From a virus: a stretch of DNA of 64,000 nt. Shown in pieces: positions 3,062-19,635 of the stretch (positions are counted from its first letter, which is position 1; each line of letters opens with the position of its first letter). A model generated the notes under the pieces. It did no database searches. It saw only the letters and a program-made list of their open reading frames with translations, and was not told where the DNA came from. The position numbers and the translations under genes were made by a program. The stretch spans positions 128,001 to 192,000 of IMG/VR virus record IMGVR_UViG_3300045988_179268. One strand, 5' to 3'.

Positions 3062-3507
3062 TTTGCGGGCAAGGGAACAGTCTTCTCCAACCCGTCATAA
3101 AGAAGTGGGACGGTAGGTTCAGTATCTACAGTATCAACTTTATCTGACACGGGTTTAATAACGGATTTAGAAGGTTTAGATTTAACGCTCTTCACCTTAC
3201 CAGACGGTTTCTTAGCCCCGCCAGGAGGTACGTTCACTTCTTCGGCGGGGCTAAACCATAATCCAATCACAACCATCAAGAAAGAAACCGTAAAAATAGC
3301 TACACTAAGCCCACCAAAAGAATCCCATAAGCCAATCATCCCAGCAAAACCAGCTAAACGACCGACCACACCTATGATTAAAGCCGCACCAAAGCCTACA
3401 AAAAGACCCAACCTAGCAACATAACCAGCCCAACCCTCACCATTTTTACGCACAAAAAATAGGGCACCCGAACGCACCCACCATAGCCCTAAAAACTTCT
3501 TCAACAT
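3037..3507 (-). CDS. membrane protein with Lys/Ser/Pro-rich tail
   Basis: 156-aa ORF with 3-4 hydrophobic helices followed by a KKPSGKVKSVKSKPSK tail. Convergent with the previous gene, 25-nt overlap. Confidence 0.45.
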   Translation of the reverse strand: MLKKFLGLWWVRSGALFFVRKNGEGWAGYVARLGLFVGFGAALIIGVVGRLAGFAGMIGLWDSFGGLSVAIFTVSFLMVVIGLWFSPAEEVNVPPGGAKKPSGKVKSVKSKPSKSVIKPVSDKVDTVDTEPTVPLLYDGLEKTVPLPANYRFDMAK

Positions 3508-3625
3508 AACCTCAAAACACCTGCAAAATCAAGGGAAAACATACATAAAAGGCATAGCGCAAAACGCGCACAGCTATACAGTACTTAGACCTAAAATAAC
3601 CGCCCCTATTCGAAGGAAATCTGAT

Positions 3626-5191
3626 ATGCCTGCCGGACTGTCACTATCAGCGCTCAAACAGAACAACCACAACCCTGCCAGCCGTGAAAAAGACGAAGAA
3701 AACCGACTAAAAAACCTCAGCGCAAGCATCACCCAATACGCAGAAGACCAGCTTCCACCACCGGCACCTGAGCCTGACGTAGCGGAAGCTGAGCCGCCCG
3801 TGCCTGCCATTGACCAAGAAGCGTTAATGGCAGAAATTCTGCGTCAAGTACGAGAAGAACACAATAAAGCATCTGTCCCGCAAACGGCAGTCGTCACCAG
3901 TGACGACCTTGCCGCCGCATCAAAAGAAAAATACGGCTCCGTGGAACCAGCAGGGGAGTACAGCGCCCTCCGTAAATCCACACCCACCAGCCTCATAGAA
4001 CCCGACAACTTCCCGCTCAGTAGCATCATCACAGACGCATACGACATGGGAGCAAGCGACGTTTACATCCAACCCGAAACACCTATTCGATTCAAGGTGG
4101 GTGGCGGCTTAGCGCCCTACTACCAGCAACCTACACCTACCCGCAACGATGTTTCACGTCTACTTGAAAAAGTTACTCAGACTACCTCTTCTACAACGTT
4201 CCGCGCTGAAAAAGAACTAGACATTTCCTACACCATCCCTAAAGGAAAATACGCTGGCAGAAGGTGCCGTCTTAACGTAACATACGTTTCACCGGGTCTG
4301 TCGAACATCAATATGGTGTTCCGACTACTCGCTACCGACATTCAAGACCCATCCTACTACAACGTACCCAAAGCTTTCATTGATGCACTTCATCAAAAAG
4401 CAGGGCTTATCGTAGTCGCAGGCGTTACAGGTAGCGGTAAAACAACCACCATCGCATCAGGTCTATACTACGCGCAATGCAACGTCACAACACCACACCC
4501 CGTCACCGGCGAACCAATGGGCGTAACTATCGTCACCATCGAACAGCCAATCGAGTACCTATTCGACAACAACAACCCCAACTCAAACGGTAGCCTATTC
4601 ATCCAGCGAGAAGTGAACACCGACACACGCTCATTCCTCAACGGCATCAAATCAGCGCTACGCCAAAACCCGAACATTATGCTTATCGGTGAGGTGCGTA
4701 ACGAGCTGGAAATCCAAGCCGCGTTACGCGCCGCTGAAACAGGTCACCTTACCCTAACCACCGTCCACGCACAGGACTGTGCAGGCATCATTGAACGCTT
4801 AGCGACCAATGATGACGGTACGCTACGCGCAAATTCATTAGCTTCCATCGCATCTAGCGGGCGCGTATTCATGACGCAGGCACTAGTCAAGCGCATGGAT
4901 GGCGGGCTAATTCCTGCACATGAAGTCTTAGAGATTAGGCAATCGGACAGAGTGCTTATTGAAGACATCAAAACAGGCAATATTTCCGACATTCGCCAAC
5001 GCCTACAAGATGAAGGCGAAGACATGTGCTCCACTCTTATGAATTTGTGCCGTGCTGAAACGGGTCCCTGTTACGTTAAGGATGCGCTAGAACACGCGCC
5101 TGACCCGCACAGGTTCCTCACCCTTATCCGCACAGCCGAGGCAAACGGCGAACAGTTCAACTACCACCCAGACGAACTAAAAAACATTTAG
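3626..5191 (+). CDS. PilT/VirB11/GspE-family (T2SSE) secretion ATPase with Pro/Glu-rich N-terminal extension
   Basis: Walker A GVTGSGKTTT, Asp-box TIEQPIEY, Walker B IMLIGEVRN, His-box TGHLTLTTVHA. GAAGGA RBS. Confidence 0.8.
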   Translation: MPAGLSLSALKQNNHNPASREKDEENRLKNLSASITQYAEDQLPPPAPEPDVAEAEPPVPAIDQEALMAEILRQVREEHNKASVPQTAVVTSDDLAAASKEKYGSVEPAGEYSALRKSTPTSLIEPDNFPLSSIITDAYDMGASDVYIQPETPIRFKVGGGLAPYYQQPTPTRNDVSRLLEKVTQTTSSTTFRAEKELDISYTIPKGKYAGRRCRLNVTYVSPGLSNINMVFRLLATDIQDPSYYNVPKAFIDALHQKAGLIVVAGVTGSGKTTTIASGLYYAQCNVTTPHPVTGEPMGVTIVTIEQPIEYLFDNNNPNSNGSLFIQREVNTDTRSFLNGIKSALRQNPNIMLIGEVRNELEIQAALRAAETGHLTLTTVHAQDCAGIIERLATNDDGTLRANSLASIASSGRVFMTQALVKRMDGGLIPAHEVLEIRQSDRVLIEDIKTGNISDIRQRLQDEGEDMCSTLMNLCRAETGPCYVKDALEHAPDPHRFLTLIRTAEANGEQFNYHPDELKNI

Positions 5192-5400
5192 TTAGCATTA
5201 AAAAGTGCTAAAATGTTCCGCAAAAAGTTTGGAAAATCAGACCTGGAAATACGTCCCACAAGCGGCGTAAACTCTAGGCGCTTGATATATAACTACACAG
5301 ATAAATAAAAACCTCTCCAGCACCCCATACGCGGGCACATAGGGCAAGGAAGTCGAGCGCCAAGCCCTATAAAATCAGAGAGACTAACGGAAACAAAATG

Positions 5401-5440
5401 GTAAGCCCCTAACCTTTTATTATGAAGGTTAGGGGCTTAC
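5401..5440. terminator. bidirectional rho-independent terminator
   Basis: Perfect 16-bp stem gtaagcccctaacctt / aaggttaggggcttac with an 8-nt loop, T-runs on both sides. Marks the left border of the skewed domain. Confidence 0.85.
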
Positions 5441-5458
5441 CATTTTTAGTCCCAAAAA

Positions 5459-7102
5459 CTAAAACTCAAAAGCTGAAACGCCATCAAAAACAGACCCATC
5501 AGGGCGACACAAACGAATAGCGCGGATACGGTCATCACAACCATTCGCCAACGCCCACTCATTCACCTTACGCATCATACGGTCACCAGTACACAACCAC
5601 AATACCTGACCAAACACGCTCCTATCATCCTTATACTGCCCCAAAATAGTCTCCAAACGACCAGGCTTCTTACCGAAGCCACGCTCAATCTCAACAGCAA
5701 CACTGCGAGGCTCCCCATCCTCGCCACGCGGAACCATGCACACAATATCCGGCACATGGTACTTCGTCTCAGACGCACCACTCATTACCGCCCACATCCA
5801 CTCATTACCGCCGTAACACTCAGGAGAAACCCCAACACCACCAGCCGCACGCCAACTACGCAACACCTCACCACGGCGCGCAATCAAAACATCGCGCACG
5901 TCAAACCCAGCACGACCCCTAAACATTCCATGAATAGCGCCATTAATCACACGGTCAGGAATCACACTGAAACCACGAGCAACCTGCCCACCAACAACAC
6001 GACCACCAGATACTAAACCACCCAACCCCAAAACATCAACCGCACCATTCACCAACATCGCCCCCACATAATGAATAAGAGTACGATGCTGAAACTCGCT
6101 ATTACCCAGCGTCTTACGCGACACAGTAGCCCCACCAACACCAAACTCATCCAAACCCACACGTGTACCAACCCATACCGTATGACGCAAACCAGGAATG
6201 TCCACCGCCTCCAAACAGCCACGCCCCTGCAACCCCTTCAAATACTTCAACGCCGTAACCCTAGTAGAAACCCCCAACAACAACATCACAGCACGCACAT
6301 CAACCCAGCCAAACAGCCCAACAAACCCCATAATCTCAACCTCACGGCGCGAACCCATCAAACGCGGCGCAACACCACCATCCCCCTTGGAAGCCCTACG
6401 CACACGCTTCAAGCGCTCAGCCACAACATCCGGCGACTCACCAACCAACGGCGGAGACACAACATCAACCTCCCCAACACGAGACAGCCAATAAGAAGCC
6501 TGCTCCAACGCCAAACCATTAGAAACCTCAGTAGAACTCATACGCGAACCTCTCCCATCGTAATCAAAACGAAAACATGACAACTCACCAACACCAGCAC
6601 CTAGCCCCAAACCTCCCGGCGGCGCAACCAACCCACCTAACTCAACACCAACAGCATCACCTAAAGCCTCAACCCCCACACCAGACGCAGGAACAACAAA
6701 CCCATCCTGAATCGCCTCAAAATCAACACCATTCACGCCACCAAAAGACCACCTAGCGCGCGGAGTAACACCAAAAGAAAACCCGCCATGCACAAAAACA
6801 CCACCAACCGTAGAAACAACAGACCCATCCCAAACATACCCAGCACACTCCGCCGCAAAAGACCTAAACGCAACAGGAACCTGCGAAAAATCACGCACAC
6901 CCCGCGCACGCTCCAACACAGACCCATCCTCAACCGCAACACCAGACCCCAACACAAAACCATTCACCAAATGCCCAACACTGAACCCCGCATCACCCAA
7001 CTCACGAATAGACCCAGACCCAGAAAAAACATCCGGCGCTAAACCCTCAACAACCTTACGACCAACATTAACAACAGCCGAAGAAACAGACCCATCAACC
7101 AT
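5459..7102 (-). CDS. Replic_Relax-like (replication-relaxation family) protein with Gly/Val-rich N-terminal half
   Basis: wHTH-like segment (VSTRVTALKYLKGLQGRGCLE), then FQHRTL, then a PD-(D/E)xK-like core YHVPDIVCMV..VAVEIERGFGKKPGRLETILGQY. The start was moved to ATG 7102 (MVDGS), which has a GGAGG RBS 7 nt upstream. The track start at 7204 abuts the divergent gene's promoter region. Confidence 0.6.
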   Translation of the reverse strand: MVDGSVSSAVVNVGRKVVEGLAPDVFSGSGSIRELGDAGFSVGHLVNGFVLGSGVAVEDGSVLERARGVRDFSQVPVAFRSFAAECAGYVWDGSVVSTVGGVFVHGGFSFGVTPRARWSFGGVNGVDFEAIQDGFVVPASGVGVEALGDAVGVELGGLVAPPGGLGLGAGVGELSCFRFDYDGRGSRMSSTEVSNGLALEQASYWLSRVGEVDVVSPPLVGESPDVVAERLKRVRRASKGDGGVAPRLMGSRREVEIMGFVGLFGWVDVRAVMLLLGVSTRVTALKYLKGLQGRGCLEAVDIPGLRHTVWVGTRVGLDEFGVGGATVSRKTLGNSEFQHRTLIHYVGAMLVNGAVDVLGLGGLVSGGRVVGGQVARGFSVIPDRVINGAIHGMFRGRAGFDVRDVLIARRGEVLRSWRAAGGVGVSPECYGGNEWMWAVMSGASETKYHVPDIVCMVPRGEDGEPRSVAVEIERGFGKKPGRLETILGQYKDDRSVFGQVLWLCTGDRMMRKVNEWALANGCDDRIRAIRLCRPDGSVFDGVSAFEF

Positions 7103-7165
7103 CAGGAAACCTCCAAAACTTATAAAGAAACTCGCAATCCACATAGCCGAAAACCCACGGCAATG

Positions 7166-7176
7166 TGTGATACAAT
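7166..7176 (+). promoter_or_regulatory. SigA-type promoter, extended -10
   Basis: TGTGATACAAT, 41 nt upstream of ATG 7217. Confidence 0.6.
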
Positions 7177-7216
7177 CATACCAACCAAACCCCCACCACA
7201 TCAAAGGAAAATCCCC

Positions 7217-7429
7217 ATGAAGAAGCTGTACAACATCGCAGGACTCACCTTAATCGCCACGCTTACCCTCACCGGATGCGGCAATAGTGAGAACACCCAA
7301 AAACCAGATACCACCAAGACATCCCAATCCGAAACAGACAGCCCACGCCGCGTAGTGAAACCCTGCGGGGCAGACACCACCGGCGACATTGAAATGGGTC
7401 AGGGACTCTGCGACCACGAAGAAAGGTAA
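7217..7429 (+). CDS. small lipoprotein
   Basis: MKKLYNIAGLTLIATLTLTGC has a signal peptide and lipobox LTGC. AAGGA RBS. The track ORF begins 54 nt further upstream, inside the promoter. Confidence 0.6.
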   Translation: MKKLYNIAGLTLIATLTLTGCGNSENTQKPDTTKTSQSETDSPRRVVKPCGADTTGDIEMGQGLCDHEER

Positions 7430-7441
7430 CGAACAAACACT

Positions 7442-7720
7442 ATGGAATCATTCATCTACGGAGTTGTTAAAGTAACTCTCGAATACCACACGTACCCCAA
7501 TAACCCGGAAAAGAACCATATTGAAACCCGTGCATGGTACCTAGACGATAATAACAACAAAATTAAAACTGTCAGCACTAGTGACAACCCCCAAATGGAA
7601 GTAGTTCACGCCCTCTCAGAACACAACAAGCCAGTATACCAGAACGGTTTAGTGGGTGAGATGCTAGTCATTAATACAAATGACTACTCAATCTTCGAAA
7701 CCAAATACATTACCCACTAA
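7442..7720 (+). CDS. hypothetical protein
   Basis: 92-aa ORF of ordinary (non-skewed) composition, followed by a strong terminator. No clear RBS. Confidence 0.5.
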   Translation: MESFIYGVVKVTLEYHTYPNNPEKNHIETRAWYLDDNNNKIKTVSTSDNPQMEVVHALSEHNKPVYQNGLVGEMLVINTNDYSIFETKYITH

Positions 7721-7723
7721 CAA

Positions 7724-7772
7724 AAAAGTATCCCTTAAACTCTCTACAGAGAAGAGTTTAAGGGATACTTTT
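7724..7772. terminator. rho-independent terminator
   Basis: 20-bp stem aaaagtatcccttaaactct / agagtttaagggatactttt. The A-run and T-run are part of the stem. Confidence 0.85.
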
Positions 7773-7787
7773 TGCCCTATATTTTAA

Positions 7788-8588
7788 CTAACGCCAAGAC
7801 TCCGCGTGGTTCAAATCGCCTTCACAATACGCATAAACAACATCAAACATCTCAGGATACTGCTTAATAAACTCCGCCGGACTCATGCCAGCATACGCCA
7901 AACTAGGACCACCAATCAAAAGCGCCGTCTGAGTCGAACTAAAAGCATCGGAAGACCCATACACCCCCAAAAGCTTCACAATATCCTCCCTCACAGAACC
8001 GCCCTCAAACTGGAAACCAGGGTACCCCATGACACCCACCCACGCCGGATGCTTCGAAAAATCGGACAAAGGGAACCTAAGCACACGATTACTCTTAACC
8101 ATCTCCTCCAACTCACCCGAAGTCACACCCAAATACTCACAGACAGCACGCTCCGTATAGACACCCTGCAAATCTTCACCAAACACCGACTCCACGGCAG
8201 TAAGACCCCTTGAACCCTTGGCGACGGCAGTGTCAATCCCCTCACAAATGTAAGAAGTAAGCTTCTCCCCGTCACCCTCAGCGACATCAAGATACCCCGC
8301 CTCGCACAAGTCATCAACAGCCTTGCAAAGCATCTCCTTAACCCCCTCAACAGTTAGCGGGAACTTGCCTCTACCACCATAAGCAGAATAATAAGGCTGA
8401 GAACCCTCACGTTCACGAAGCATAAACAGCCCAACAGCCGCACAACAATGAAACAGCAAAACACGTTGAAGAGACTCAGTAATCACAACATCACCAGAGC
8501 CAACCTTCACATCAACATACTCACAAACCTCCTGCTTCACACCAGCAAGAACCTCAGCCTGCGCACTAGAAATAACACGAGAAGACAT
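7788..8588 (-). CDS. HTH plus DUF2384-like (Xre/MbcA/ParS-antitoxin-like C-terminal domain) protein, paralog family 2
   Basis: 266 aa. HTH-like YTERAVCEYLGVTSGELEEMV, then YPGFQFEGGSV, then MSPAEFIK. G/T-ending codons. Confidence 0.6.
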   Translation of the reverse strand: MSSRVISSAQAEVLAGVKQEVCEYVDVKVGSGDVVITESLQRVLLFHCCAAVGLFMLREREGSQPYYSAYGGRGKFPLTVEGVKEMLCKAVDDLCEAGYLDVAEGDGEKLTSYICEGIDTAVAKGSRGLTAVESVFGEDLQGVYTERAVCEYLGVTSGELEEMVKSNRVLRFPLSDFSKHPAWVGVMGYPGFQFEGGSVREDIVKLLGVYGSSDAFSSTQTALLIGGPSLAYAGMSPAEFIKQYPEMFDVVYAYCEGDLNHAESWR

Positions 8589-8629
8589 TAAGCAACCCCC
8601 ACAATAGAAAGAAAAATAAGTGCAAAACT

Positions 8630-8638
8630 ATGATACCA
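8630..8638 (-). promoter_or_regulatory. SigA-type promoter, extended -10
   Basis: TGGTATCAT on the minus strand, about 42 nt upstream of ATG 8588. Confidence 0.45.
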
Positions 8639-8663
8639 AACAAGGCAACACAAACACTAAAAA

Positions 8664-8700
8664 CTGGGAGGGGTGAAACAAAAAACTTCACCCCTCCCAG
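8664..8700 (-). terminator. rho-independent terminator
   Basis: 14-bp perfect stem ctgggaggggtgaa / ttcacccctcccag. T-run on the minus strand, downstream of the stop of 8714..9910. Confidence 0.85.
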
Positions 8701-8713
8701 CACCTACAAACGG

Positions 8714-9910
8714 CTACCCGCAATACCGCACAACCGCAAGAACCGCATCCACATACTCATCACCAAGACGCGCATACTCAACAGGCGCAACCAACCCAAA
8801 CCACGGCGACGGACTCTCCAAAAACTCAACAATACGGTCATCACCCCAACCCCAATCACGCAACTCACCCACAAGACGCACAGACCCAGAGAAAAACACC
8901 CAATCAATCACTAACCCATCATCCCCATAAACAGGCATCAGATGCACACCCTCAACAATATAATCGCCATCCCCATACTTCCCCGCCAGCAACTCGCCAG
9001 ACTCACACATACCCGCCACTACATCCTCAGGAACCCCCAACCCCTTAGCTACCTTGTGGGGTGGCAAACCAGCCCAACGGACACCATTAGAACGCTCATC
9101 AATACTAGCGAAACGGTGAACCAAAACACCCCACGGGACACGCAAAACCTCAGCCAAAGCCCCCAAATCAGCCAAAGAACCGCCACCCACAGACGGAACA
9201 ACACCTGCCACCGTCAAAGCAACAACATTCCCCGGCACTGGAACATTACCCACACCAGCACGCCCCCACGCACGCCCAACAACCTCAGCGCGCCGCCCCA
9301 ACGCACATTCACGCGCATCATCCAACACAAGAGCAACCAGAGCCTCATCACCCGACATCAACAACTCAGCCGCCGACAAAAACCCATACTCAAACGACGG
9401 CGTGAACAAAAAATCATCAGTAATATGAGGCTTCACACCAACAGCCCTGAACATCTTCACACACTCAAAAAACTCAGGGTTAAACCTCAAAGCGCCCTCA
9501 CCAGACACACTCCAAACTCCCTTACCGGCACCACCCCAAAACTGGGCACGAGTAAACAGCAAAGCACCCTCCCAGATGCCACCATTAAGGTAACCCTCCT
9601 CATACAGGCGCATCACCTCAGTGCCCGGCAACCCCTTATCCTCCAGCTCAGCCAAAGACAACCCGTCACCCCACTCACAATAAATACCCCACCCGGCAGA
9701 ACCGCCTCCAAACGCTTCCTCCAAACGCTCATACATGAACTCAGTAGAGACACCAAGAACACTAGAAACTAGCTCAAAATGCTCATTCTCCCAATCATAA
9801 GTAGACTTGGGAAGCCCTAAAGAACGAACCCTCAACACATCCTCAGCAGAGAAAAACTTGAAGCCAGGGTACTCATCAAAAACATTGTGCAACATGGAAG
9901 TAGCCTCCAA
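8714..9910 (-). CDS. DUF2384-like domain protein, paralog family 2 (larger member)
   Basis: 398 aa. C-terminal LMPVYGDDGLV..FLESPSPWFGLVAPVEYARLGD. GGAGG RBS 8 nt upstream of the ATG. Third codon positions are almost all G/T. Confidence 0.6.
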   Translation of the reverse strand: MEATSMLHNVFDEYPGFKFFSAEDVLRVRSLGLPKSTYDWENEHFELVSSVLGVSTEFMYERLEEAFGGGSAGWGIYCEWGDGLSLAELEDKGLPGTEVMRLYEEGYLNGGIWEGALLFTRAQFWGGAGKGVWSVSGEGALRFNPEFFECVKMFRAVGVKPHITDDFLFTPSFEYGFLSAAELLMSGDEALVALVLDDARECALGRRAEVVGRAWGRAGVGNVPVPGNVVALTVAGVVPSVGGGSLADLGALAEVLRVPWGVLVHRFASIDERSNGVRWAGLPPHKVAKGLGVPEDVVAGMCESGELLAGKYGDGDYIVEGVHLMPVYGDDGLVIDWVFFSGSVRLVGELRDWGWGDDRIVEFLESPSPWFGLVAPVEYARLGDEYVDAVLAVVRYCG

Positions 9911-10054
9911 AAGAAAAACAAAAATACTTGCACTCCCTATAATACCCCCCCCCTCAAAAAATCAAGAAAACACGCCGGTAAACATCTCTAGATACAATAC
10001 ATCCCACGCATAGAAGAGAATTAGAACACCCCTAAAGAGCATCCATCGCAAATA

Positions 10055-10065
10055 TGTGGTACAAT
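10055..10065 (+). promoter_or_regulatory. SigA-type promoter, extended -10
   Basis: TGTGGTACAAT, followed by leader hairpin ggttgagg/cctcaacc at 10078-10097. Confidence 0.6.
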
Positions 10066-10178
10066 CTAAACATGAAAGGTTGAGGTGAGCCTCAACCCAC
10101 CACCCCACCCTAACCATACAGGGAACCCAAAAAAGGGGCGAACACCCAATCATTAAACACAGAAAGAGAGCATCAACA

Positions 10179-11000
10179 ATGCGAAACATCACCCCCTTCC
10201 TCTACTGGGAAACCCTCAACACCAACGACGGTATCCTCCTCATCCCCACCGACAACACCACCAACGACCGCATGGCAATCTACACCATCGACCAGGTAAC
10301 CAACACCGACCACGCCACCGCACGCCTGCGCCACGCAAGCTTCAACGCACCCAAGACCATCACCCTCACCCGCACCAACGGACAGCTCACCACCAACGAC
10401 CTACCAGACCTCAAAGCCGTAAACATCGGCACCCGAGGCGACGCTATCGAACCCACCTACTACGCCGTCGAAAACGACGACAACATCACCATCTGGTACA
10501 GCACCGAACACTACAACGACATCGCCATCGCACACACCCTCAAAGCCAACGGAGAAACCCGCGTAATCTTCCACGAACCCGACGAATACGATACCCCCGA
10601 AGGCGGGTACAACATCTGGACAGTCCTCCAAGCAACCGAAAACTACGAAGACACCGACACCCTCCCCGAAACCTTCAACATCCCAGAAGCCAACACCGCA
10701 CCTCTCACCCCCGAAACCGCACTAGCACTCCACGACACCCTCAACCACCCCGAATACCACACCCTCAACGACAAAGAAACCCTCGAAGAAGAACTAATCT
10801 CCCTCTGGCAAAACATCTCAGACTACTACGCAATCCCTGGCGAAATGCACTGGGTATCCGACACTGAAATCCTCTGGCGCGCCAAAGACTACCTCACCAC
10901 CGTACACGACATCGCAATCAAAGAAGGACGCGCCAACCTAGCCAACCAAACCCTCCACCACATCAACACCATCACCACCCACACCAACTACGAAGAATAA
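10179..11000 (+). CDS. acidic hypothetical protein (Thr/Asn/His/Asp/Glu-rich)
   Basis: 273-aa ORF with an ATG start and its own promoter. Third codon positions are almost exclusively C or A, the mirror image of its minus-strand neighbours. Confidence 0.6.
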   Translation: MRNITPFLYWETLNTNDGILLIPTDNTTNDRMAIYTIDQVTNTDHATARLRHASFNAPKTITLTRTNGQLTTNDLPDLKAVNIGTRGDAIEPTYYAVENDDNITIWYSTEHYNDIAIAHTLKANGETRVIFHEPDEYDTPEGGYNIWTVLQATENYEDTDTLPETFNIPEANTAPLTPETALALHDTLNHPEYHTLNDKETLEEELISLWQNISDYYAIPGEMHWVSDTEILWRAKDYLTTVHDIAIKEGRANLANQTLHHINTITTHTNYEE

Positions 11001-11021
11001 CCCCCAAAACACCAAAAGATA

Positions 11022-11057
11022 CCCCTGGCAACCCGCACAAACACGGGAAACCAGGGG
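11022..11057. terminator. terminator hairpin between convergent genes
   Basis: cccctgg/ccagggg outer stem plus cccg/cggg inner stem. The minus-strand side is followed by tatcttttggtgtttt. Confidence 0.6.
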
Positions 11058-11083
11058 CATCTTCCTATACCACCAACAACACA

Positions 11084-13360
11084 CTAACCACCCAAAACCG
11101 ACACAACCTCACCCACCGAAACACCCAACCCCAACACCGGCGAACCAACCGGCACATCAACCCAACCACCAGAAACACCCCAACCAGAACGACCAAACAA
11201 CCCAGCAGACCCACCACCACCAGAAACAACCCCCACCGGCGAACCAAACCCCTCACTACCAGCCACAAACCCCAAACCCAACCCACCATCCAAACCACCA
11301 CGCCCAGAAACAACCGAACCAACAACACCAGACAAAACACGCCCACCAACAGACCCCAAAACACCATCCAAACCACCACGCAACAACCCCCACAAAACAC
11401 CAGAACCCAAACCCGCAACCCTACCAAACACCGGACAAACCCCCGACAACCCCAAACCACCACCAACACCAGACACCACATCAACCAACCCCACCACAGA
11501 CGAAACACCCCTCAAACCACCAACCAAAGAACCCACCGGCGACCCACCAGGCAAAACACCACCACCAAACACACCCGACAAACCCCCAACACCCCACAAA
11601 CCAGACACACCATCAACCACACCACCACAAGAACCAGCAACCCCCACCGACAAAACACCACCACCAAACACCGACCCAAACCCCACAGGAACAAGCCCCG
11701 CCCCAAACACAAGAGAACGCCACAACCACCCATCAACATCAACCACAGCCCCAACACCCCCATCAACAAAACCACCATCAACATCAAAACCCTCAACAGC
11801 ACCAACAACACCAGACACACCCGGCACAAAACCACCAGCCCCAACACCCCAAACACCAACCCTACGCCCAAAACCAGCCCCAACACCACCACCACCCAAA
11901 ACACCCAAACCAGCAGACGACAAACCCCAAGAACAAGACAACCCGCCAACACCAGAAACACCCCCACCAACCGGCAACCCAAAAACCCCAACAACACCCG
12001 ACAAATCAACACCAAACCCCGAAACAGAACCCAAACCAGCCAACGCATCCAACCCAGACACCCCCGACACCAACCACGGCACAGCAACCCCAACACCACC
12101 AGAAACCCCACCAACATCCGCCGCACCAGCACCCACACCACCAAACCCAGCAGAGCCAACCCCACCAAAATCAACCCCACCGACAAAATCACCAACGGGC
12201 AAACCAATCGGCAAACCGCACACCCCAGACCCCATAAACAACCCCACTGGCGAACAACCCAACATGCCCAATAACCCATCAACCCCACCAGCCACAGAAC
12301 CACCAAACCCAGACGAAGAACCAAACCTCACGCCAGAACCACCCACAACACCAAACAAACCCGAACCTCTAGAAGCCCCCACAGACCTATTAAAACTAGT
12401 AGAAGGTAAAACAGTACCGCCAATAGACAAAACACCCTCAGAAGCCCCCTCAAGCCCCGTAGAAACCCCCTCTATAGTAACCCCATCAGTAGCAGGCTCA
12501 GAAAACTCCTCGCCACCACCCCAAAAACCCTCAACAAAACCGCCACCAACACCAACCCCCACAAAACCCCCAACACCATCCACAACACCAGACGAGCCCC
12601 ACCCCACCGACACACCAACCCCCACAGGCTCAACAAAACCGGCACCACGAAGCGAACCACCCCAAACACCAACCCGCCCATCAACCCCCAACAACCCAAC
12701 AACACCAGAATCAACGCCCCACAACTCAACACCAACCCCACCCGGAACAAACACCCCACACACACCACCAGACAACCCATCCCCCAACAACCCAGAACCC
12801 AAACCACCAACACCAACACCAGACTCCAAAACACCACGCCCAACAACCACAACAACCACACTCCAAAAAAGAAAAAACAAAAAAATAGTACACCACAAAC
12901 ATAGCCACAAAAACACCCCCACCCAGACAACCCCCAAAAAACAAAACCCCCAACACCCACCCAACAAACAAAAACCCCACAAAAACACCCCCACAACAAA
13001 AAAAACCAAACCAACCACCCCAAGCAAACCCCAAAAAACAACGCACCACAAACCCAAAACCACACAAAGAACTTGGGCAACACTAAAAATAAACACCAAA
13101 AACACGAATAACCAAGACACAAGACACAAGAGAAAAGGAAAAAGCAACAAGACATAACAGACACAGACACGCAAAGAGGAAAGCAATAACACTACAAAGA
13201 AAGAAGTACCCAGGATAAACAGATACACAAAATAAACACCAATACACGACAGACATAGAGGATAAGCGCAGACACATACACCATAAACAGAAAGAAGCAC
13301 AGGCACACAATACGCAAGCACAGAAAAACACGAAGGCAACAACAGATACAAGAGACACAC
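11084..13360 (-). CDS. low-complexity Gly/Val/Ser-rich ORF (coding strand and true start uncertain)
   Basis: 758-aa ORF ending 26 nt before a terminator that works best on the minus strand. The rare bases show 3-nt periodicity. All six frames are nearly stop-free here, and a Pro/Thr-rich + frame (open 11088-13157, first ATG at 12264) shares the same wobble position. Confidence 0.3.
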   Translation of the reverse strand: MCLLYLLLPSCFSVLAYCVPVLLSVYGVCVCAYPLCLSCIGVYFVYLFILGTSFFVVLLLSSLRVCVCYVLLLFPFLLCLVSWLFVFLVFIFSVAQVLCVVLGLWCVVFWGLLGVVGLVFFVVGVFLWGFCLLGGCWGFCFLGVVWVGVFLWLCLWCTIFLFFLFWSVVVVVVGRGVLESGVGVGGLGSGLLGDGLSGGVCGVFVPGGVGVELWGVDSGVVGLLGVDGRVGVWGGSLRGAGFVEPVGVGVSVGWGSSGVVDGVGGFVGVGVGGGFVEGFWGGGEEFSEPATDGVTIEGVSTGLEGASEGVLSIGGTVLPSTSFNRSVGASRGSGLFGVVGGSGVRFGSSSGFGGSVAGGVDGLLGMLGCSPVGLFMGSGVCGLPIGLPVGDFVGGVDFGGVGSAGFGGVGAGAADVGGVSGGVGVAVPWLVSGVSGLDALAGLGSVSGFGVDLSGVVGVFGLPVGGGVSGVGGLSCSWGLSSAGLGVLGGGGVGAGFGRRVGVWGVGAGGFVPGVSGVVGAVEGFDVDGGFVDGGVGAVVDVDGWLWRSLVFGAGLVPVGFGSVFGGGVLSVGVAGSCGGVVDGVSGLWGVGGLSGVFGGGVLPGGSPVGSLVGGLRGVSSVVGLVDVVSGVGGGLGLSGVCPVFGRVAGLGSGVLWGLLRGGLDGVLGSVGGRVLSGVVGSVVSGRGGLDGGLGLGFVAGSEGFGSPVGVVSGGGGSAGLFGRSGWGVSGGWVDVPVGSPVLGLGVSVGEVVSVLGG

Positions 13361-13709
13361 AAAAGAAGATAAGAGGCAACACAGTACGTATACACAAGAA
13401 AGGCAAAAGAAGCATAAAGAGAGGACATAAGAGCGGAAGGCACATATATGCTAGAAACACATAGGGATACACGCAGACTAAGTAATACACGACAGGTATA
13501 GAGAGGGTAGGTAGATAGGGTAAGCACGCATAGGATGGCACACGGTATATACGGAGGGGCTAGAAACGGTTAGTGGGTGTGAGTGGTGGTAGGTTGGGCA
13601 GGGTGGAAGGTGGTGTGGTGGTTGGGTGTGGTGTGGGTCATATTGCTCACGCGGTTGGTTGCTCTTTCCCTTTTTTCTTTCTCCTTTTCTTGTGTTTTTG
13701 GTAGCGTGC

Positions 13710-13772
13710 TGTGGCGCGGGGTATTTTTGGGTGTTTCGGTATGTGGGGGAATGTATCATTTGCCCTAGTCAG
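13710..13772 (+). repeat. 63-bp perfect direct repeat, copy 1
   Basis: tgtggcgcggggtatttttgggtgtttcggtatgtgggggaatgtatcatttgccctagtcag, identical to 13955-14017. Confidence 0.95.
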
Positions 13773-13811
13773 GACGTTTTTGCGTTTTGGGTGACAGGGC
13801 TGTAGTAGTGG

Positions 13812-13843
13812 CTTAAAATCAACCTGTAGAAGTTGATTTTAAG
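13812..13843. repeat. AT-rich hairpin 1 (cttaaaatcaac / gttgattttaag)
   Basis: 12-bp perfect stem, 8-nt loop. Shares the AAAATCAAC..GTTGATTTT core with hairpin 2. Confidence 0.9.
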
Positions 13844-13954
13844 GTGTTTTATATAGATTTTTGAGGTGAATTGGGTTGTCTGCGTCTTTGGCGCAGGGGT
13901 TTTGGTGGTAATTATGACGTTTTTTAGGTTTTTTGGGTGGGTTTTTGTGTGCAT

Positions 13955-14017
13955 TGTGGCGCGGGGTATTTTTGGGTGTTTCGGTATGTGGGGGAATGTA
14001 TCATTTGCCCTAGTCAG
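13955..14017 (+). repeat. 63-bp perfect direct repeat, copy 2
   Basis: Identical to 13710-13772, offset by 245 bp. Confidence 0.95.
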
Positions 14018-14058
14018 CGCGTTATGCACTTTGGTACAGATTCTCATTTTCAGGGGTT

Positions 14059-14086
14059 AAAAATCAACCTCCAGGGGTTGATTTTT
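14059..14086. repeat. AT-rich hairpin 2 (aaaaatcaacc / ggttgattttt)
   Basis: 11-bp perfect stem, 6-nt loop. Sits in the same position relative to DR copy 2 as hairpin 1 does to copy 1. Confidence 0.9.
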
Positions 14087-14220
14087 GGTAAGCGCATGGT
14101 GCGAGCGCGATTTTAAGCCTTGGTGCCGGGGTGTCGAAGGATGGTTTTTATTGCTTTGCGGGTGCCAGGTGTGGTAGGTTGCGCCATTGTGTATCACAAG
14201 CTTGCGTGTCGTCTATTTTC

Positions 14221-14231
14221 TGTGGTATAGT
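14221..14231 (+). promoter_or_regulatory. SigA-type promoter, extended -10
   Basis: TGTGGTATAGT with TTGCGT about 17 nt upstream. Leader hairpin at 14249-14269. Confidence 0.6.
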
Positions 14232-14307
14232 TATAGGGTAATCATATGGCGGGTAATCGTTACCTGCCGTTATTCTTCATCTTGTTCCTATGGAGGGATT
14301 GTTAGTT

Positions 14308-14661
14308 ATGGCTTTTAGTGTTGAGATTCAGGTTAGGGCTAAGAACACTTATGCCCGGTTGGTGTGTTCTTTGTCTGAGATTGGTGCGCTGTTCTCTACG
14401 GGCAGTTTTGTGAAGGCGGCGGTTTTGAATTTGGCGATGTTTGATGCGAGCGCTTCGTCTGCTAATCCTAGTGTGTGGGATGGGGTGGATGAGAAAGAGC
14501 GTCGCTTGCAGTGGTCGTACAATGAGTTGCGTAACCTTGCGTCTTCTTTTGCCCCCGATTGGGCTGAGGCTGTTGCTAAGGATGATGAGGCGCTGGCTTT
14601 GGAGATTTTGAACGCTGTGGATGATGTGGTTTCTTATGCGCGTGAGCGTGTATTTGGTTAG
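14308..14661 (+). CDS. hypothetical protein
   Basis: 117 aa counted from ATG 14308, which has GGAGGG 10 nt upstream. The track start is 14290. G/T-ending codons. Confidence 0.55.
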   Translation: MAFSVEIQVRAKNTYARLVCSLSEIGALFSTGSFVKAAVLNLAMFDASASSANPSVWDGVDEKERRLQWSYNELRNLASSFAPDWAEAVAKDDEALALEILNAVDDVVSYARERVFG

Positions 14662-14675
14662 CACTGTCTTGTGTT

Positions 14676-14714
14676 AGCGAAGGGGCGGGTTCCTGTTTGG
14701 GTTCCCGCCTCGCT
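14676..14714 (+). terminator. rho-independent terminator
   Basis: agcga..ggcggg / cccgcc..tcgct stem, followed by a T-rich tract. Confidence 0.6.
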
Positions 14715-14830
14715 TCTCTACTTTTGGTTTTCTGCTTGGGTGAGTGTGTGCTTGCTTGGGTGGCATGTTTTGTTTTTGTGGGTGGGTGTTCTGCCTGCTT
14801 CATTGAGTTTATTGAAAGGGAGTTTTGTTG

Positions 14831-15916
14831 ATGTCTGTTTTTCCTGGTGATGTTGTGTCTACTGTTGTGGGTGTTCTGCATGTGCAGACTATTGTTATGG
14901 AGCGTTCGCGTGAGGATGTGTCTTTCGCGGTGTCTGGTGTTGATGGTGGGGGTGTGGTTCACTCGAACATTCCTATTGGTGAGGGTGTGGTTCCGTTGGC
15001 TGTTGATGTGCCTGAGTCTGAGGCGTTGGTGTGGTTTGACCGTGAGCGTCGCTTGAAGCGTTTGGGGGATGCTGTGTTTAGTCCTGGTGATGGTGTTAGG
15101 GCTTTGGGTAAGCTGATGGAGGGGCAGGGTGTTGAATTGTCGTTGTCTGACTGTGAACCTGCTGAGGCTGTTGTTAGGTGGCTGGGTGAGGTTGAGGCTT
15201 CTCTGGTTGGGGCGAGGGCGTGGGTTACAGGGAAGCGTATGGAGTGCCTGCGTGCGTTTGAGGATTTTCATGCGGGCTGGTTGAAGTATCATAGTCGCCC
15301 TTGGGGTGAGCCGTCTTTGGGTGAGCGTTGTGATGTGCGACCTGGTATTGGGTTTAGGTCTGGTGGTGTGTATCGGTTCCGACGTGAGGGTGCGCCTATT
15401 GAGGATGGGTATGAGTATTTCAAGGTTGTTCGTACTGTCGGTCAGCCTGAGATTGTTATTTATGGTGCGTCTACTGAGGTAAGTGAGTGTCTGGGTTTTA
15501 TTCATGGTGTTAAGTATGGTCCTAACTATGATTATCTTCTCCTGCTGGCTGAGGTTGGCGGTAAGAAGATTTCGATGCTGGCGGATACTGTGAAGCTTCT
15601 GCCTATTGGTTCTTTTGAGGATATTGAGTCTTACCTTGAGTTGAGTGAGTATGAGGACGTTTCTCTTCCTGGCGCATTGCGCAACATTTTCCTTGACCTG
15701 TTTGCCGCTGGTGACGGTAAGCCTAAGTGCCTGCCCTCCCGTGAAGAGCTTAACGGTGGCTACTACGGTTGGGGTGATGACTACGGTAAGCGTTGTGGTG
15801 AGTTGATGGAGGCAAGTGCTGACATTCTGTTCGATATTGAGAAGAGTATCGGGTATGTCCGGTGGTTGCGTGAACAGCTGGTAGGCTTCTATCGTGAGCT
15901 AGGGTTCACTATCTAG
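14831..15916 (+). CDS. paralog family 1 protein (PGDVV beta-domain plus helical modules)
   Basis: 361 aa from ATG 14831 (AAGGGAG RBS). C-terminal GDGKPKCLPS..FDIEKSIGYVRWLREQL aligns with 28347..29120. The ARAWVTGKRMEC motif is shared with two paralogs. Confidence 0.7.
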   Translation: MSVFPGDVVSTVVGVLHVQTIVMERSREDVSFAVSGVDGGGVVHSNIPIGEGVVPLAVDVPESEALVWFDRERRLKRLGDAVFSPGDGVRALGKLMEGQGVELSLSDCEPAEAVVRWLGEVEASLVGARAWVTGKRMECLRAFEDFHAGWLKYHSRPWGEPSLGERCDVRPGIGFRSGGVYRFRREGAPIEDGYEYFKVVRTVGQPEIVIYGASTEVSECLGFIHGVKYGPNYDYLLLLAEVGGKKISMLADTVKLLPIGSFEDIESYLELSEYEDVSLPGALRNIFLDLFAAGDGKPKCLPSREELNGGYYGWGDDYGKRCGELMEASADILFDIEKSIGYVRWLREQLVGFYRELGFTI

Positions 15917-16161
15917 GGGGGTCGCCGCCTAGGGAGGGGTGGCGTATGGGAGCCGCTGAATCCTCCGGCTACTAGGTTTGGGTGACCGCTCTTGTAGTTG
16001 ATGGCGAGCGCTCTCTTGGGCGGCTATGTCTTAGTGGTGGTTGTTTGCTGGTTGCTTCGCTAAGTGTGGTGATGGGTGTGAGTGCTTGAAGGGTGCTCAT
16101 GCCCATCATTTGTTTCTGCTGGGGTGAGCCACACACTATAGCTTGCGCCCCCGTCTGAATC

Positions 16162-16172
16162 TGTGGTATAAT
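16162..16172 (+). promoter_or_regulatory. SigA-type promoter, extended -10
   Basis: AATCTGTGGTATAAT, 70 nt upstream of ATG 16242. Confidence 0.65.
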
Positions 16173-16241
16173 TAAATTGTTCAATCGGGGGTGTTTCCCG
16201 TAAAGCCAATGACCAATACGCATGTTTGAGGAGTCACACAA

Positions 16242-16640
16242 ATGTCCTGCGCTGTTAAGATGATGAAGCCCTACACTTACACCACCCTTCCCTTTACCGC
16301 TACCAGCACTGCCCACATGGGCGATGTTGAGTCATGGGTTTCTTCTAAGATGACTCTTGAGTTCGTATCCTGGGATTCAGGTGAGGAGGCTCACGTTACT
16401 TATGGGGTGCAGGCGACTAACCCGGCTAAAGAGCCTGGCGATGACGGCTGGTTGATTGGTCGTGTGACTATGAGTGTTGATGTTGAGGGTGAGGTTGCTC
16501 TGAGTGATGCTCTTATGCGTCGTATGGTGGAAGACTTTAAGGTTGTGATGCGTAATCGTGTAGCGCAGGGTCAGGCTCTTGTGGACTTTGAGGGTGGGGT
16601 TCCGGTCTTTAAGCAGACTGTGACGTTCGCTACCGTGTAG
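16242..16640 (+). CDS. hypothetical protein
   Basis: 132-aa ORF with GAGGAG RBS 8 nt upstream. Confidence 0.6.
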   Translation: MSCAVKMMKPYTYTTLPFTATSTAHMGDVESWVSSKMTLEFVSWDSGEEAHVTYGVQATNPAKEPGDDGWLIGRVTMSVDVEGEVALSDALMRRMVEDFKVVMRNRVAQGQALVDFEGGVPVFKQTVTFATV

Positions 16641-16775
16641 TAGGTGGCATGTGTTAGCTTTAAGCCGTGGGGTGGCTTCCTGTACAGGGGTTGCTTTGCG
16701 GCTTTATTTATGTTTCCTGTGACTTATATGTGGTTGTGGTGTTTCCACCTCGTAGGTTGCCTCAATGTTTCACTG

Positions 16776-16786
16776 TGTGAGATAAT
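16776..16786 (+). promoter_or_regulatory. SigA-type promoter, extended -10
   Basis: TGTGAGATAAT. Part of a ~55-bp module also present in diverged form at about 16064-16119. Confidence 0.5.
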
Positions 16787-16855
16787 GGGTATGAGTACTT
16801 AGGAGGGTGCTCATGTTAATTATTTATTTTCTTGTGAAAGGAAGGTGTGCCTGTT

Positions 16856-17032
16856 ATGGGTGTTGTGAAGGGTGGTCGCTCTTTGGTTCGTGAGTCTGGT
16901 GTGGTTCGTTGGGATGATGGTTCGCGCCTGTTTGGTGAACGGTTTGCGAGCGCCAACTATAAGGTCACTATCGGGCGCGTTAATGTTGGTACTGCTGAGG
17001 TTGGCATTGGGTCGTCTGAGGGGCGGAGGTAA
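16856..17032 (+). CDS. small hypothetical protein
   Basis: 58 aa from ATG 16856 (GAAAGGAAGG RBS). Its stop lies 3 nt before the next small ORF. Confidence 0.4.
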   Translation: MGVVKGGRSLVRESGVVRWDDGSRLFGERFASANYKVTIGRVNVGTAEVGIGSSEGRR

Positions 17033-17035
17033 GGC

Positions 17036-17209
17036 GTGCCTATTTGGGTTATTGCTTTAGAATCCTATGTCCTAATTATGGTTCTAGTTTTCAGTCTTGG
17101 CATTGCTCTTGATGTGAACATGAGGAGTCTTGTTGAGATGCTTGCAGTGATTCATATACCTGTTCTTATTGCCGCCGGTGTAGCTCACTTTGGGCTACAC
17201 ATAATCTAG
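17036..17209 (+). CDS. small membrane protein (57 aa, not in ORF track)
   Basis: GTG start with GGAGG 6 nt upstream. Two hydrophobic helices (PIWVIALESYVLIMVLVFSLGIAL..IPVLIAAGVAHFGL). Confidence 0.45.
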   Translation: MPIWVIALESYVLIMVLVFSLGIALDVNMRSLVEMLAVIHIPVLIAAGVAHFGLHII

Positions 17210-17247
17210 GTGACTTTCGATTGCCACTTATAACAGGAAGGTGAAGT

Positions 17248-17409
17248 ATGGGTCTGCTGATTATTGTCTTGGTTTTTGTTTTGATTGAGGCTTTACTTTC
17301 TCTTGTTGGGGTGTGTCTTGGTTGGGGTGCCTATGAGTACTTAATGATACATGTTGTACTGTATGGCGTTACGTTTGTTGTGGCAGGTTCCAGTATGACC
17401 TCTGTGTAG
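17248..17409 (+). CDS. small membrane protein (53 aa, not in ORF track)
   Basis: ATG with AGGAAGG RBS 6 nt upstream. MGLLIIVLVFVLIEALLSLVGVCLGWG.. has two helices. Confidence 0.5.
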   Translation: MGLLIIVLVFVLIEALLSLVGVCLGWGAYEYLMIHVVLYGVTFVVAGSSMTSV

Positions 17410-17503
17410 ATGACGGCTAGGTGTTGTACGTGGTGTGCGGCTAACTAATATAGTTCTTTGTGTCCCACTTCACACATATTTGGCTTGCATACAGTTTTAA
17501 ATC

Positions 17504-17514
17504 TGTGATAGACT
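17504..17514 (+). promoter_or_regulatory. SigA-type promoter, extended -10 with -35 TTGCAT
   Basis: AAATCTGTGATAGACT. TTGCAT at 17485-17490 with an 18-nt spacer. Confidence 0.75.
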
Positions 17515-17586
17515 ATAAATATAAGGCAAGCGGGAAAGAAACCCGAAAGCCACGAAGCATCAACCAACTACCGAAGGGTGGCAACC

Positions 17587-17901: not shown

Positions 17902-17907
17902 ACATTG

Positions 17908-17946
17908 ACAAACCCCCTATGGAGTTAGTACCCATAGGGGGTTTGT
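17908..17946 (+). terminator. rho-independent terminator
   Basis: 15-bp perfect stem acaaaccccctatgg / ccatagggggtttgt. Confidence 0.85.
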
Positions 17947-18024
17947 GTTATATGCTTGTCTTAGCGGTGGAACGGCATTCTCTGTGGCATAGTTAGATAA
18001 TCTTCATAGTGAACCTTTGGCGCG

Positions 18025-18033
18025 TGTTACAAT
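18025..18033 (+). promoter_or_regulatory. SigA-type promoter, extended -10
   Basis: TGTTACAAT, 68 nt upstream of ATG 18101. Confidence 0.55.
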
Positions 18034-19629: not shown

Positions 19630-19635
19630 TGCGCC

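Follow-up and report, generated by a model that had tools for sequence, protein, structure and literature searches.

Introduction

Strand compositional asymmetry follows a general pattern in bacteria, which has been reviewed (PMC3269012), and in Lawsonia intracellularis and its plasmids it is the DNA strand that sets codon usage (PMC2671203). In mitochondria, the gradient that accompanies strand-displacement replication reflects deamination of both C and A on the single-stranded strand (PMC3269012), and the footprint of Pol I on ColE1 plasmids is an origin-proximal, strand-specific mutation load that wanes farther out, where the main replicase has taken over (PMC3167613). For the leading regions of conjugative plasmids, only a higher GC content and a more variable GC skew have been reported (PMC13478746). 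Here we describe a locus that shares features with each of these systems and also departs from each of them. It lies in a stretch of 64,000 nucleotides (nt), hereafter the window, of the IMG/VR record IMGVR_UViG_3300045988_179268, namely positions 128,001-192,000 of a 319,371-bp metagenome contig (JGI 3300053491) that represents a large, plasmid-like element from human microbiome samples.

On either side of a point near 13.5 kb in this window, the silent sites of the genes are reduced almost to two letters, A and C on the + strand to the left and G and T to the right, and this bias is a property of position and DNA strand, not of the gene, its direction or its codon preference. The local strand asymmetry is far stronger than is usual for bacterial DNA; no prior report of a local skew this strong was found in the literature, an absence that is itself no proof of novelty. 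The mirrored bias is, moreover, a trait of the whole element family. The explanation that we favour, and to which we would give about an even chance of being right, is long-term strand-asymmetric mutation pressure at a place, at approximately 13.50-13.56 kb, where bidirectional replication starts.

Strand Composition and the Switch Point

The main measure used was the fraction of A+C (or G+T) at four-fold degenerate sites, taken gene by gene and by strand. Three features define the skew zone:

5459..13495: left arm; + strand nearly A/C only at silent sites; keto skew -0.45 to -0.73
13495..13560: switch point; composition flips within about 200 nt; minimum of the cumulative keto skew at 13,495
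13560..17200: right arm; + strand G+T-rich, with a weaker tail to about 24 kb

Between 8 and 13.2 kb the + strand has a GC skew of -0.42 to -0.74 and an AT skew of +0.39 to +0.92, and between 13.6 and 15.2 kb a GC skew of +0.25 to +0.53 and an AT skew of -0.35 to -0.54, the AT skew being at least as strong as the GC skew. When the sequence is read by eye, the flip is complete by 13,560, to the right of which the + strand is 88% G+T at four-fold sites. Two adjacent 200-nt bins at the switch, counted on the reverse-complement strand, pass from A63 C79 G25 T33 to A17 C43 G40 T100.

The five large genes of the left arm, which lie in both orientations, all have a four-fold + strand A+C fraction of 0.87-0.95: 0.91 for 5459-7204 (minus), 0.88 for 7788-8588 (minus), 0.87 for 8714-9910 (minus), 0.95 for 10179-11000 (plus; 121 of 128 sites), and 0.95 for 11084-13360 (minus). 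To the right of the switch the same fraction is 0.12 for both 14290-14661 and 14825-15916 and 0.24 for 16242-16640 (all plus), then 0.21-0.38 out to 23.8 kb; among the genes beyond approximately 24 kb it is mostly 0.3-0.75, and no consistent skew is seen in the window between 37 and 64 kb. A preliminary description of this DNA had noted mirrored third-position saturation in the oppositely oriented neighbours 8714-9910 and 10179-11000; the effect is real and was understated, and the gene-by-gene four-fold fractions bear out the strand dependence. Its further claim, that the bias follows the DNA strand and not transcription or translation, rests in the window on one good gene (10179-11000) and in two related loci, L019 and L020, on many.

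Most genes of both arms point away from the switch, so that their coding strand is the G+T-rich one. Within the allowed pair of bases, the third position favours the pyrimidine (T for genes on the minus strand, C for the one on the plus strand); a codon-level preference for third-position pyrimidines is thus superimposed on the strand effect, and it is the smaller of the two. The genes and elements of the skew zone are as follows, with proteins given in amino acids (aa), dN/dS denoting the ratio of nonsynonymous to synonymous substitution rates, and ORF an open reading frame:

8714..9895, minus: gene for a 393-aa protein (focal); third-position coding-strand G+T 0.88
10179..11000, plus: gene for a 273-aa protein (focal); G+T 0.40/0.32/0.07 at the three codon positions
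11084..13321, minus: low-complexity, G-, V- and L-rich ORF; length in relatives 588 to 745 aa
5459..7102, minus: gene for a conserved 547-aa protein, strongly skewed yet slow-evolving; dS 0.074, dN/dS 0.04
7788..8588, minus: gene for a 266-aa ORFan; four-fold coding-strand G+T 0.88-0.92 in four loci; dN/dS 0.37
7217..7429, plus: small lipoprotein gene with a lipobox in its translation; four-fold coding-strand G+T 0.17
7442..7720, plus: gene for a 92-aa protein; four-fold coding-strand G+T 0.35 (n = 34)
13710..14085, plus: non-coding repeat module just right of the switch; two 69-nt direct repeats and hairpins
14290..15916, plus: first two right-arm genes (123 aa and 361 aa); four-fold coding-strand G+T 0.88 in both

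Conservation of the Pattern among Related Elements

Orthologous loci (designated by L numbers) were found with the 393-aa family as probe, and they come from several lineages and cohorts and from three data sources. Every such locus that spans the site shows a switch from A+C to G+T, 2-4 kb upstream of the 393-aa gene. In 15 loci of several lineages the profiles of skew against distance are nearly superimposable and have the same polarity: on the left the skew is -0.50 at -1 kb and fades by -6 kb, and on the right it is +0.68 to +0.77 at 0-2 kb, holds a plateau of 0.39-0.50 to 8 kb, and then stays at approximately 0.2.

The relatives also supply the genes that run against the prevailing direction. 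L020 has five consecutive minus-strand genes with a four-fold + strand G+T of 0.81-0.94, set between plus-strand genes at 0.85-0.99, and L019 has ten minus-strand genes over 10 kb at 0.69-0.98, including those for T2SSE, AAA_31, and AAA_10 ATPases. The 273-aa gene has A or C at 95-100% of its four-fold sites in all eight loci checked, and in some genes the two-letter saturation reaches 98-100%. Independence of orientation is therefore seen in the window and in at least 15 opposite-strand genes of L019 and L020, conserved ATPase genes of the type IV secretion system (T4SS) type among them. A gene family can, in addition, change its composition with its location: the AAA_31 gene has 98% A/C at four-fold sites in L019 and 50% in the window, the two proteins being 48% identical. 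Because the same gene families differ greatly in silent-site composition between lineages, it is genomic context, and not the gene, that sets the composition. A bias that follows the strand in this way argues against codon selection, against an effect of transcription direction, and against the simple import of foreign DNA; the preliminary description had already argued against the first and the last of these, and the opposite-strand genes of the relatives, which share the DNA-strand bias, bear it out.

These genes bear most directly on the idea that the bias stems from transcription, through damage, linked to transcription or R-loops, that would befall the non-template strand wherever long transcripts run outward from promoters at the switch. 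The prevailing gene direction on both arms would fit such a process, as would the promoter-like sites and conserved repeats at the switch and the end of the left arm, which comes in a step at the convergent gene junction at 5.2-5.46 kb. However, an identical bias of the DNA strand is found, at 81-100% of four-fold sites, in genes of opposite orientation (the 273-aa gene in all lineages, the five L020 and ten L019 genes, and the primase gene of L038), and to account for them antisense transcription would have to dominate over more than 10 kb of conserved genes. We consider this explanation very unlikely.

An artefact, or the recent import of compositionally foreign DNA, is effectively refuted. 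Genes of the skew zone are indeed ORFans, they are more divergent than the flanks (82-92% vs. 98% identity), and their relatedness is mosaic, all of which might have suggested import; but the pattern recurs in independent assemblies, in several cohorts, and in all three data sources, and import can yield neither a complementary bias in opposite neighbours nor a change of composition in the middle of an ORF.

Substitution Pattern and Constraint

Against ten loci that encode an identical T2SSE, the identity of the window is approximately 98% at 1-7.4 kb, 82-92% at 8.5-13 kb, and 75% at 13.0-13.5 kb. Differences between lineages are symmetric, and where only A and C remain they are mostly exchanges between A and C; both lineages therefore stand at the same compositional equilibrium. 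When substitutions are polarised, with L022 as the close relative and three outgroups, the per-site rates in the left arm are 0.035 for G>A vs. 0.014 for A>G and 0.026 for T>C vs. 0.012 for C>T, and those in the right arm are 0.157 for A>G vs. 0.068 for G>A and 0.183 for C>T vs. 0.089 for T>C. The asymmetry of transitions is thus approximately 2.1- to 2.6-fold and mirrored across the switch, and forward and backward counts are near balance. The strand-specific mutational process proposed in the preliminary description is supported to the extent that the rates are asymmetric and mirrored, though the cause may also be selection on composition. Composition, independence of gene direction, conservation across the family, and the mirrored asymmetry of rates are all direct observations.

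Protein conservation of the focal ORFs is clear, with 30 homologs of the 393-aa protein, down to 34% identity, and a 273-aa protein that is 72-100% identical in two deep lineages. In each of the two genes, the bases lost from the third codon position (G and T in 10179-11000, A and C in its minus-strand neighbour) persist at the first two. The preliminary view that codon positions 1 and 2 remain under purifying selection was overstated, since coding-strand G+T at position 1 is 0.72-0.90 in the minus-strand genes vs. 0.40 in the plus-strand gene. Against close relatives, dN/dS is 0.32-0.40 for 8714-9895 and 0.44-0.46 for 10179-11000 (0.32-0.46 in the focal genes together, values that are unreliable in this DNA), and it is 0.00-0.01 for the neighbouring ATPase genes at 49-1284, 1307-3061, and 3626-5191. 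In a deep comparison of the 273-aa gene, the proportion of synonymous differences (pS 0.11) is smaller than that of nonsynonymous ones (pN 0.14), and dN/dS is at or above 1. Synonymous sites are effectively frozen because reversible transitions cannot pile up as differences, and dN/dS therefore overstates the relaxation of constraint; in such DNA the ratio is misleading, and it is usable for close pairs only. The bias extends to the proteins: G, V, F, L, W, and C together account for 47% of the residues in both the 547-aa and the 393-aa protein and for 74% in the low-complexity ORF, compared with 35% in the unskewed L019 ortholog.

The Second Switch and the Conjugation Module

Each element carries a paralog of the 393-aa gene approximately 57 kb away, and a second switch, of opposite polarity, adjoins it. 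This second switch lies 57-67 kb from that of the window (near -53 kb in window coordinates); it is represented by L038:14625-17297 and is found also in L037, L040, L050-L052, L057, L061, L062, L064, L067, and L068. In L038 the four-fold + strand G+T climbs gradually from 0.52 to 0.83 over approximately 15 kb toward the switch and then drops. The drop falls in the middle of an 890-aa ORF, which has no family match and in which third-position G+T is 0.80 over the first 500 or so codons and approximately 0.45 thereafter; the two genes past the switch are at 0.26 at four-fold sites. Far from both switches, four segments taken from two related contigs lack a consistent skew. Globally, the signs of the skew fit an origin at 13.5 kb with the second switch as terminus, but only near these two points is the amplitude high.

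A paralog of the 393-aa type stands 4-6 kb inside each switch, at approximately 5 kb in the case of the second. Between the switches lie genes for AAA_10 (VirB4-like), T2SSE, and other ATPases, a DEAD helicase, a TraG-D_C coupling protein, and a DnaG-type primase, and just beyond the second switch are those for an Rpf-type transglycosylase with LysM and a NAD-dependent ligase (LigA). This architecture invites the proposal that the switches are the nick and termination sites of conjugative transfer, bracketing a conjugation module, and that the transferred strand, or its partner in the donor, is deaminated while exposed as a single strand. Both switches do bracket the AAA_10, T2SSE, coupling-protein, primase, and helicase genes, with a winged-helix 393-aa paralog inside each; the Rpf-LysM and LigA genes beyond the second switch are oriented as genes of leading regions usually are with respect to a strand that departs from it, and the strongly skewed arm consists mostly of genes without a family match. 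However, transfer involves a single strand and predicts a skew of constant sign, yet the sign flips sharply at both switches. Neither the window nor the related loci that were scanned gave a match to any relaxase family, and a decay length of 6-10 kb is short against a transfer of approximately 320 kb. On balance, exposure during conjugation is an unlikely source of the bias.

A Replication Start as the Proposed Source of the Bias

We return to the explanation that we favour, strand-asymmetric pressure at a start of bidirectional replication. Here the strand that runs 5' to 3' away from a fixed point would long have been acquiring C>T and A>G substitutions, on both sides, until silent sites were reduced to G and T on the outgoing strand and to A and C on its partner, whatever strand a gene uses. 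This could take either of two forms. In the first, the displaced (lagging-template) strands would remain single-stranded for long before lagging synthesis, as does the H strand of vertebrate mitochondria; in the second, the first kilobases of both leading strands would be made by an error-prone synthesis biased toward G.T mispairs, as in the Pol I footprint of ColE1. A bias toward G.T mispairs fits better than spontaneous deamination, because A>G and C>T are equally strong. Protein constraint would hold codon positions 1 and 2 only partly, so that amino-acid composition would drift as well.

The switch has the polarity of a bacterial origin, G+T lying on the leading-equivalent strand, and the flip takes less than 200 nt. 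This polarity, together with the sharpness of the switch, the independence of gene direction, the dependence of orthologs on context, and the change within an ORF, points to a DNA-level process acting at fixed sites; the assignment of an origin and of a mutational, rather than selective, cause is what we infer. Further points in its favour are the nearly superimposable profiles of the 15 loci, the mirrored rates of the polarised substitutions, the mitochondrial and ColE1 precedents, and a dip in GC content at the switch, modest but conserved, that adjoins the repeat and hairpin module.

Several observations weigh against this explanation. No replication initiator was found: the genes that flank the switch have no match to Rep, DnaA, or any other family, although an initiator from a family not yet described may be present. 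No iteron array was found at the switch, only the two 69-nt repeats with hairpins, and no cluster of DnaA boxes, of which the window has 22 matches vs. 15.3 expected, none of them at the switch. The dip in GC content at the switch is conserved but modest (0.38-0.47 vs. approximately 0.56 on the flank, over approximately 800 nt). The skew does not extend along whole replichores: it is lost over 6-20 kb, distant parts of related contigs are unskewed, and the switch of opposite polarity is only 57-67 kb off in an element of approximately 260-410 kb, with the skew peaking there too. At the end of the left arm the four-fold skew steps from 0.91 to 0.63 across 270 nt and is not gradual, the step coinciding with the convergent gene junction noted above. 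The AT skew is as strong as the GC skew, unlike in spontaneous deamination, where C reacts far faster than A, and C>T changes (n = 58) show none of the preference for TC or CC contexts that a deaminase-like activity would leave.

Exceptions also exist at the switch itself. In L019:6009-9613, two compositionally ordinary genes (four-fold G+T 0.36 and 0.41) lie exactly at the switch, and the same two unskewed genes are present in L054, L056, L058-L060, and L063. One of the pair is the ortholog of 5459-7102 (47.6% identical in protein; 0.41 vs. 0.91 in the window); the second bears a distant resemblance, in the C-terminal part, to the relatives' orthologs of the low-complexity ORF. Orthologs of the pair elsewhere are at 0.91-0.99. 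Recent variants at these genes in the L019 lineage lean only weakly to G+T (139 vs. 100). Finally, young polarised variants that erode the skew outnumber those that build it, by 93:56 and 73:36 in one analysis and by 235:83 in another, and this excess could reflect selection and not mutation bias. Counts made in three ways lean toward such an excess, but ancestral misassignment under strong bias, as well as recombination, confounds them.

This last result bears on the reading in which a two-letter strand composition is itself selected, as DNA of this kind would contain no palindromes, would not fold when single-stranded, and would be invisible to restriction enzymes that recognise palindromes. 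Palindromes are in fact depleted across the whole window (1-64000): set against shuffles that preserve dinucleotides, those of six bases reach only 0.38-0.53 of the expected number (z -5.5 to -7.4) and those of four bases 0.75-0.80. Their absolute density is lowest in the skew zone (3.6 per kb overall and 1.5 at 11-13 kb, compared with 7-8 elsewhere and 15.7 for unskewed DNA of equal GC), some genes are saturated at 98-100% of four-fold sites with equally strong AT and GC skews, and the young variants are enriched for eroding changes, as if these were later purged. However, palindromes in the skew zone are no rarer than composition predicts (observed/expected 0.62 vs. 0.38-0.53 in controls), the advantage per single silent site would be minute, and avoidance of palindromes needs neither a coherent sign over kilobases nor a conserved flip with the polarity of an origin; misassignment and recombination, of which mosaicism is a sign, could also produce the eroding excess. 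Selection on composition is accordingly a doubtful explanation, quite improbable to our mind. We regard as equally doubtful the adaptive proposal that near-two-letter strands at both borders of the conjugation module protect or streamline the DNA as it enters a new host or becomes established there. A self-reinforcing variant is also possible: the more skewed the initiation zone, the longer it would stay single-stranded.

Genes and Elements of the Skew Zone

The genes of the skew zone have no significant match in Pfam, PHROGs, or NCBIfam; for the 273-aa protein, one sub-threshold match to Big_10 in Pfam was the only hit in these three databases. The models given in the preliminary description for the two focal genes stand, except that the minus-strand gene is called from an ATG at 9895, preceded by GGAGG, and not from 9910, which is an upstream TTG; a terminator hairpin of 17 bp follows it at 8701-8663. 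An AlphaFold2 model of the 393-aa protein, with a predicted local distance difference test score (pLDDT) of 83, apparently consists of two similar winged-helix-like modules, and its best fold matches in the PDB are Rv2175c (E 0.056) and helix-turn-helix proteins of the MerR/Xis/BldC type; judging from this model, the protein probably binds DNA. The 273-aa gene has a coding-strand G+T at four-fold sites of 0.05 in the window and 0.00-0.03 in seven orthologs. The model of the 547-aa protein is of low confidence (pLDDT 48) and has a winged helix in its C-terminal half, for which only MarR-type winged-helix matches were obtained.

Between 11 and 13.5 kb, both strands have long overlapping ORFs in several frames. 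All stop codons contain T as well as A, so that such DNA has almost none on either strand; an open frame is therefore no proof of a gene, and gene callers return spuriously long ORFs. In the low-complexity ORF 11084..13321, a third-position periodicity of substitutions (19/24/69) is confined to 11084-12199, and indels of 1-2 nt occur elsewhere, so constraint looks to be limited to the C-terminal third.

Among the smaller genes, that of the 266-aa ORFan is missing from L009, L011, L012, and L013. The lipoprotein gene was said earlier to behave like 10179..11000, and so it does, its relatives having a four-fold coding-strand G+T of 0.03-0.15. The adjoining 92-aa gene is more weakly skewed in the window, in keeping with the ordinary composition that had been ascribed to it; the suggestion that it is a recent insertion fails, as it is present in 18 other loci of the set compared, in which L012 is the only one spanning the position to lack a match, and in the L020 lineage its orthologs, at 48-56% protein identity, have a four-fold coding-strand G+T of 0.07-0.12. 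On the right arm, orthologs of the 123-aa and 361-aa genes are mostly at 0.88-0.93, the L020 ortholog of the 361-aa gene being at 0.66.

The repeats of the non-coding module (13710-13778 and 13955-14023) are 97% identical, and each is followed by a hairpin with a 12-bp stem, at 13812-13843 and 14060-14085 (AAAATCAACC...GGTTGATTTT). The module is 80-98% conserved in two deep lineages whose 393-aa proteins share only approximately 40% identity, and because it is conserved far better than the neighbouring proteins, its sequence marks it as a putative functional non-coding element. It has no match in Rfam, nothing from Rfam was found at the switch, and the window contains neither tRNA genes nor Rfam RNAs.

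The Element, Its Relatives and Its Host

Locus L007 is 100% identical to the window across 20.8 kb, and an independent ENA assembly of 319,425 bp is identical to it across 13.6 kb and is broken at another place. Two assemblies of nearly equal length with different break points suggest a circular element of approximately 319 kb. All related loci that span the switch lie on human-metagenome contigs of approximately 260-410 kb, and the family is almost entirely unannotated. There is no near match among deposited plasmid or phage records, and no earlier description of these elements was found in the literature, which again is no proof of novelty. Elements of this kind are nevertheless common in human microbiome assemblies: the identical T2SSE ATPase sequence recurs across 331 data blocks, the contigs being as long as 412 kb and labelled as coming from human cohorts. 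Very few of the proteins in the window have a family match, the following among them:

0-5.2 kb: AAA_10 ATPase, ParA/CpaE-like ATPase, and T2SSE ATPase (family match)
51712-53010, plus: IS605-family TnpB (OrfB_IS605 and Cas12f1-like TNB domain)
45674-46396, plus: BaxI_1, Bax-inhibitor-1-like membrane protein (E 2.5e-48)

Matches of the T2SSE and AAA_10 proteins to known plasmids all fall below 33% identity, and in the species-representative genomes scanned the 393-aa family has no match and the TnpB no close relative. Relatedness within the family is mosaic over positions 1-20000 of the window: L022 is 95-98% identical to it at 8-13 kb and less so (88-91%) at 3-6 kb, whereas in L010 and L027 the pattern is reversed. 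Such mosaicism indicates frequent recombination among these elements.

Two related contigs in the viral collection, IMGVR_UViG_3300045988_174371 and _174689 (361 kb and 307 kb; loci L065-L072), have a gene content of the conjugative-plasmid type, with a coupling protein, a VirB4-like ATPase, a primase, and a ligase. As to the host, L038:17538-20862 encodes the Rpf-type transglycosylase with LysM and the NAD-dependent DNA ligase, and the best match of LigA is an Arthrobacter record at 62.9% identity; together with the Rv2175c-like fold of the 393-aa protein, these are indirect hints of a host in Actinomycetota, possibly in Micrococcales. The Inocle, a giant extrachromosomal element of oral streptococci, was considered and rejected on GC content, as Inocles average 32% or 24% (PMC12340149) and the window has 44-56%.

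Comparison with Known Systems

Strand asymmetry is normally weak and genome-wide and is used to find origins; here it is local and near saturation, and protein composition is dragged along with it. If the cause is mutational, sequence alone would show where, and on which strand, DNA stays exposed or is miscopied, and where replication or transfer starts and ends; if the cause is selective, the pattern would represent a new way for a mobile element to evade restriction.

Among conjugative plasmids, the leading region is similar in that the skew zone adjoins type IV secretion genes, contains many small genes without a family, and belongs to an element that avoids palindromes. It differs in that no origin of transfer (oriT) or relaxase was identified here, the sign of the skew flips, and nothing of this amplitude was found reported for such regions. 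The resemblance to ordinary bacterial GC and AT skew is also considerable, as the sign flips at a point, the leading-equivalent strand is G+T-rich, and the strand sets codon usage. However, the keto skew here reaches 0.8, with 87-100% of four-fold sites in two letters, the AT skew is as strong as the GC skew, the effect covers 6-20 kb and not a whole replichore, and the opposite switch is only 57-67 kb away in an element of approximately 260-410 kb.

Vertebrate mitochondrial DNA shares with this locus the combination of C>T and A>G on one strand, a positional gradient, nearly saturated silent sites, and shifted amino acids, and the features expected of a mitochondrial type of signature are present: the skew at four-fold sites exceeds that at positions 1 and 2, the rates are mirrored, and the effect is graded with distance. 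In contrast to the mitochondrial case, the pattern here is mirrored about one point, it resides in a large bacterial plasmid-like element, and A>G is not weaker than C>T, the strength of A>G being atypical. Should the cause prove mutational, these elements would nonetheless provide a natural bacterial counterpart of the mitochondrial single-strand gradient. In the ColE1 footprint, as here, the load is highest where the leading strand starts and falls with distance. That footprint is unidirectional, extends over 1-3 kb, and was produced with an engineered error-prone polymerase, whereas the pattern in the window is natural and bidirectional, covers at least 6-10 kb, and has reached compositional equilibrium.

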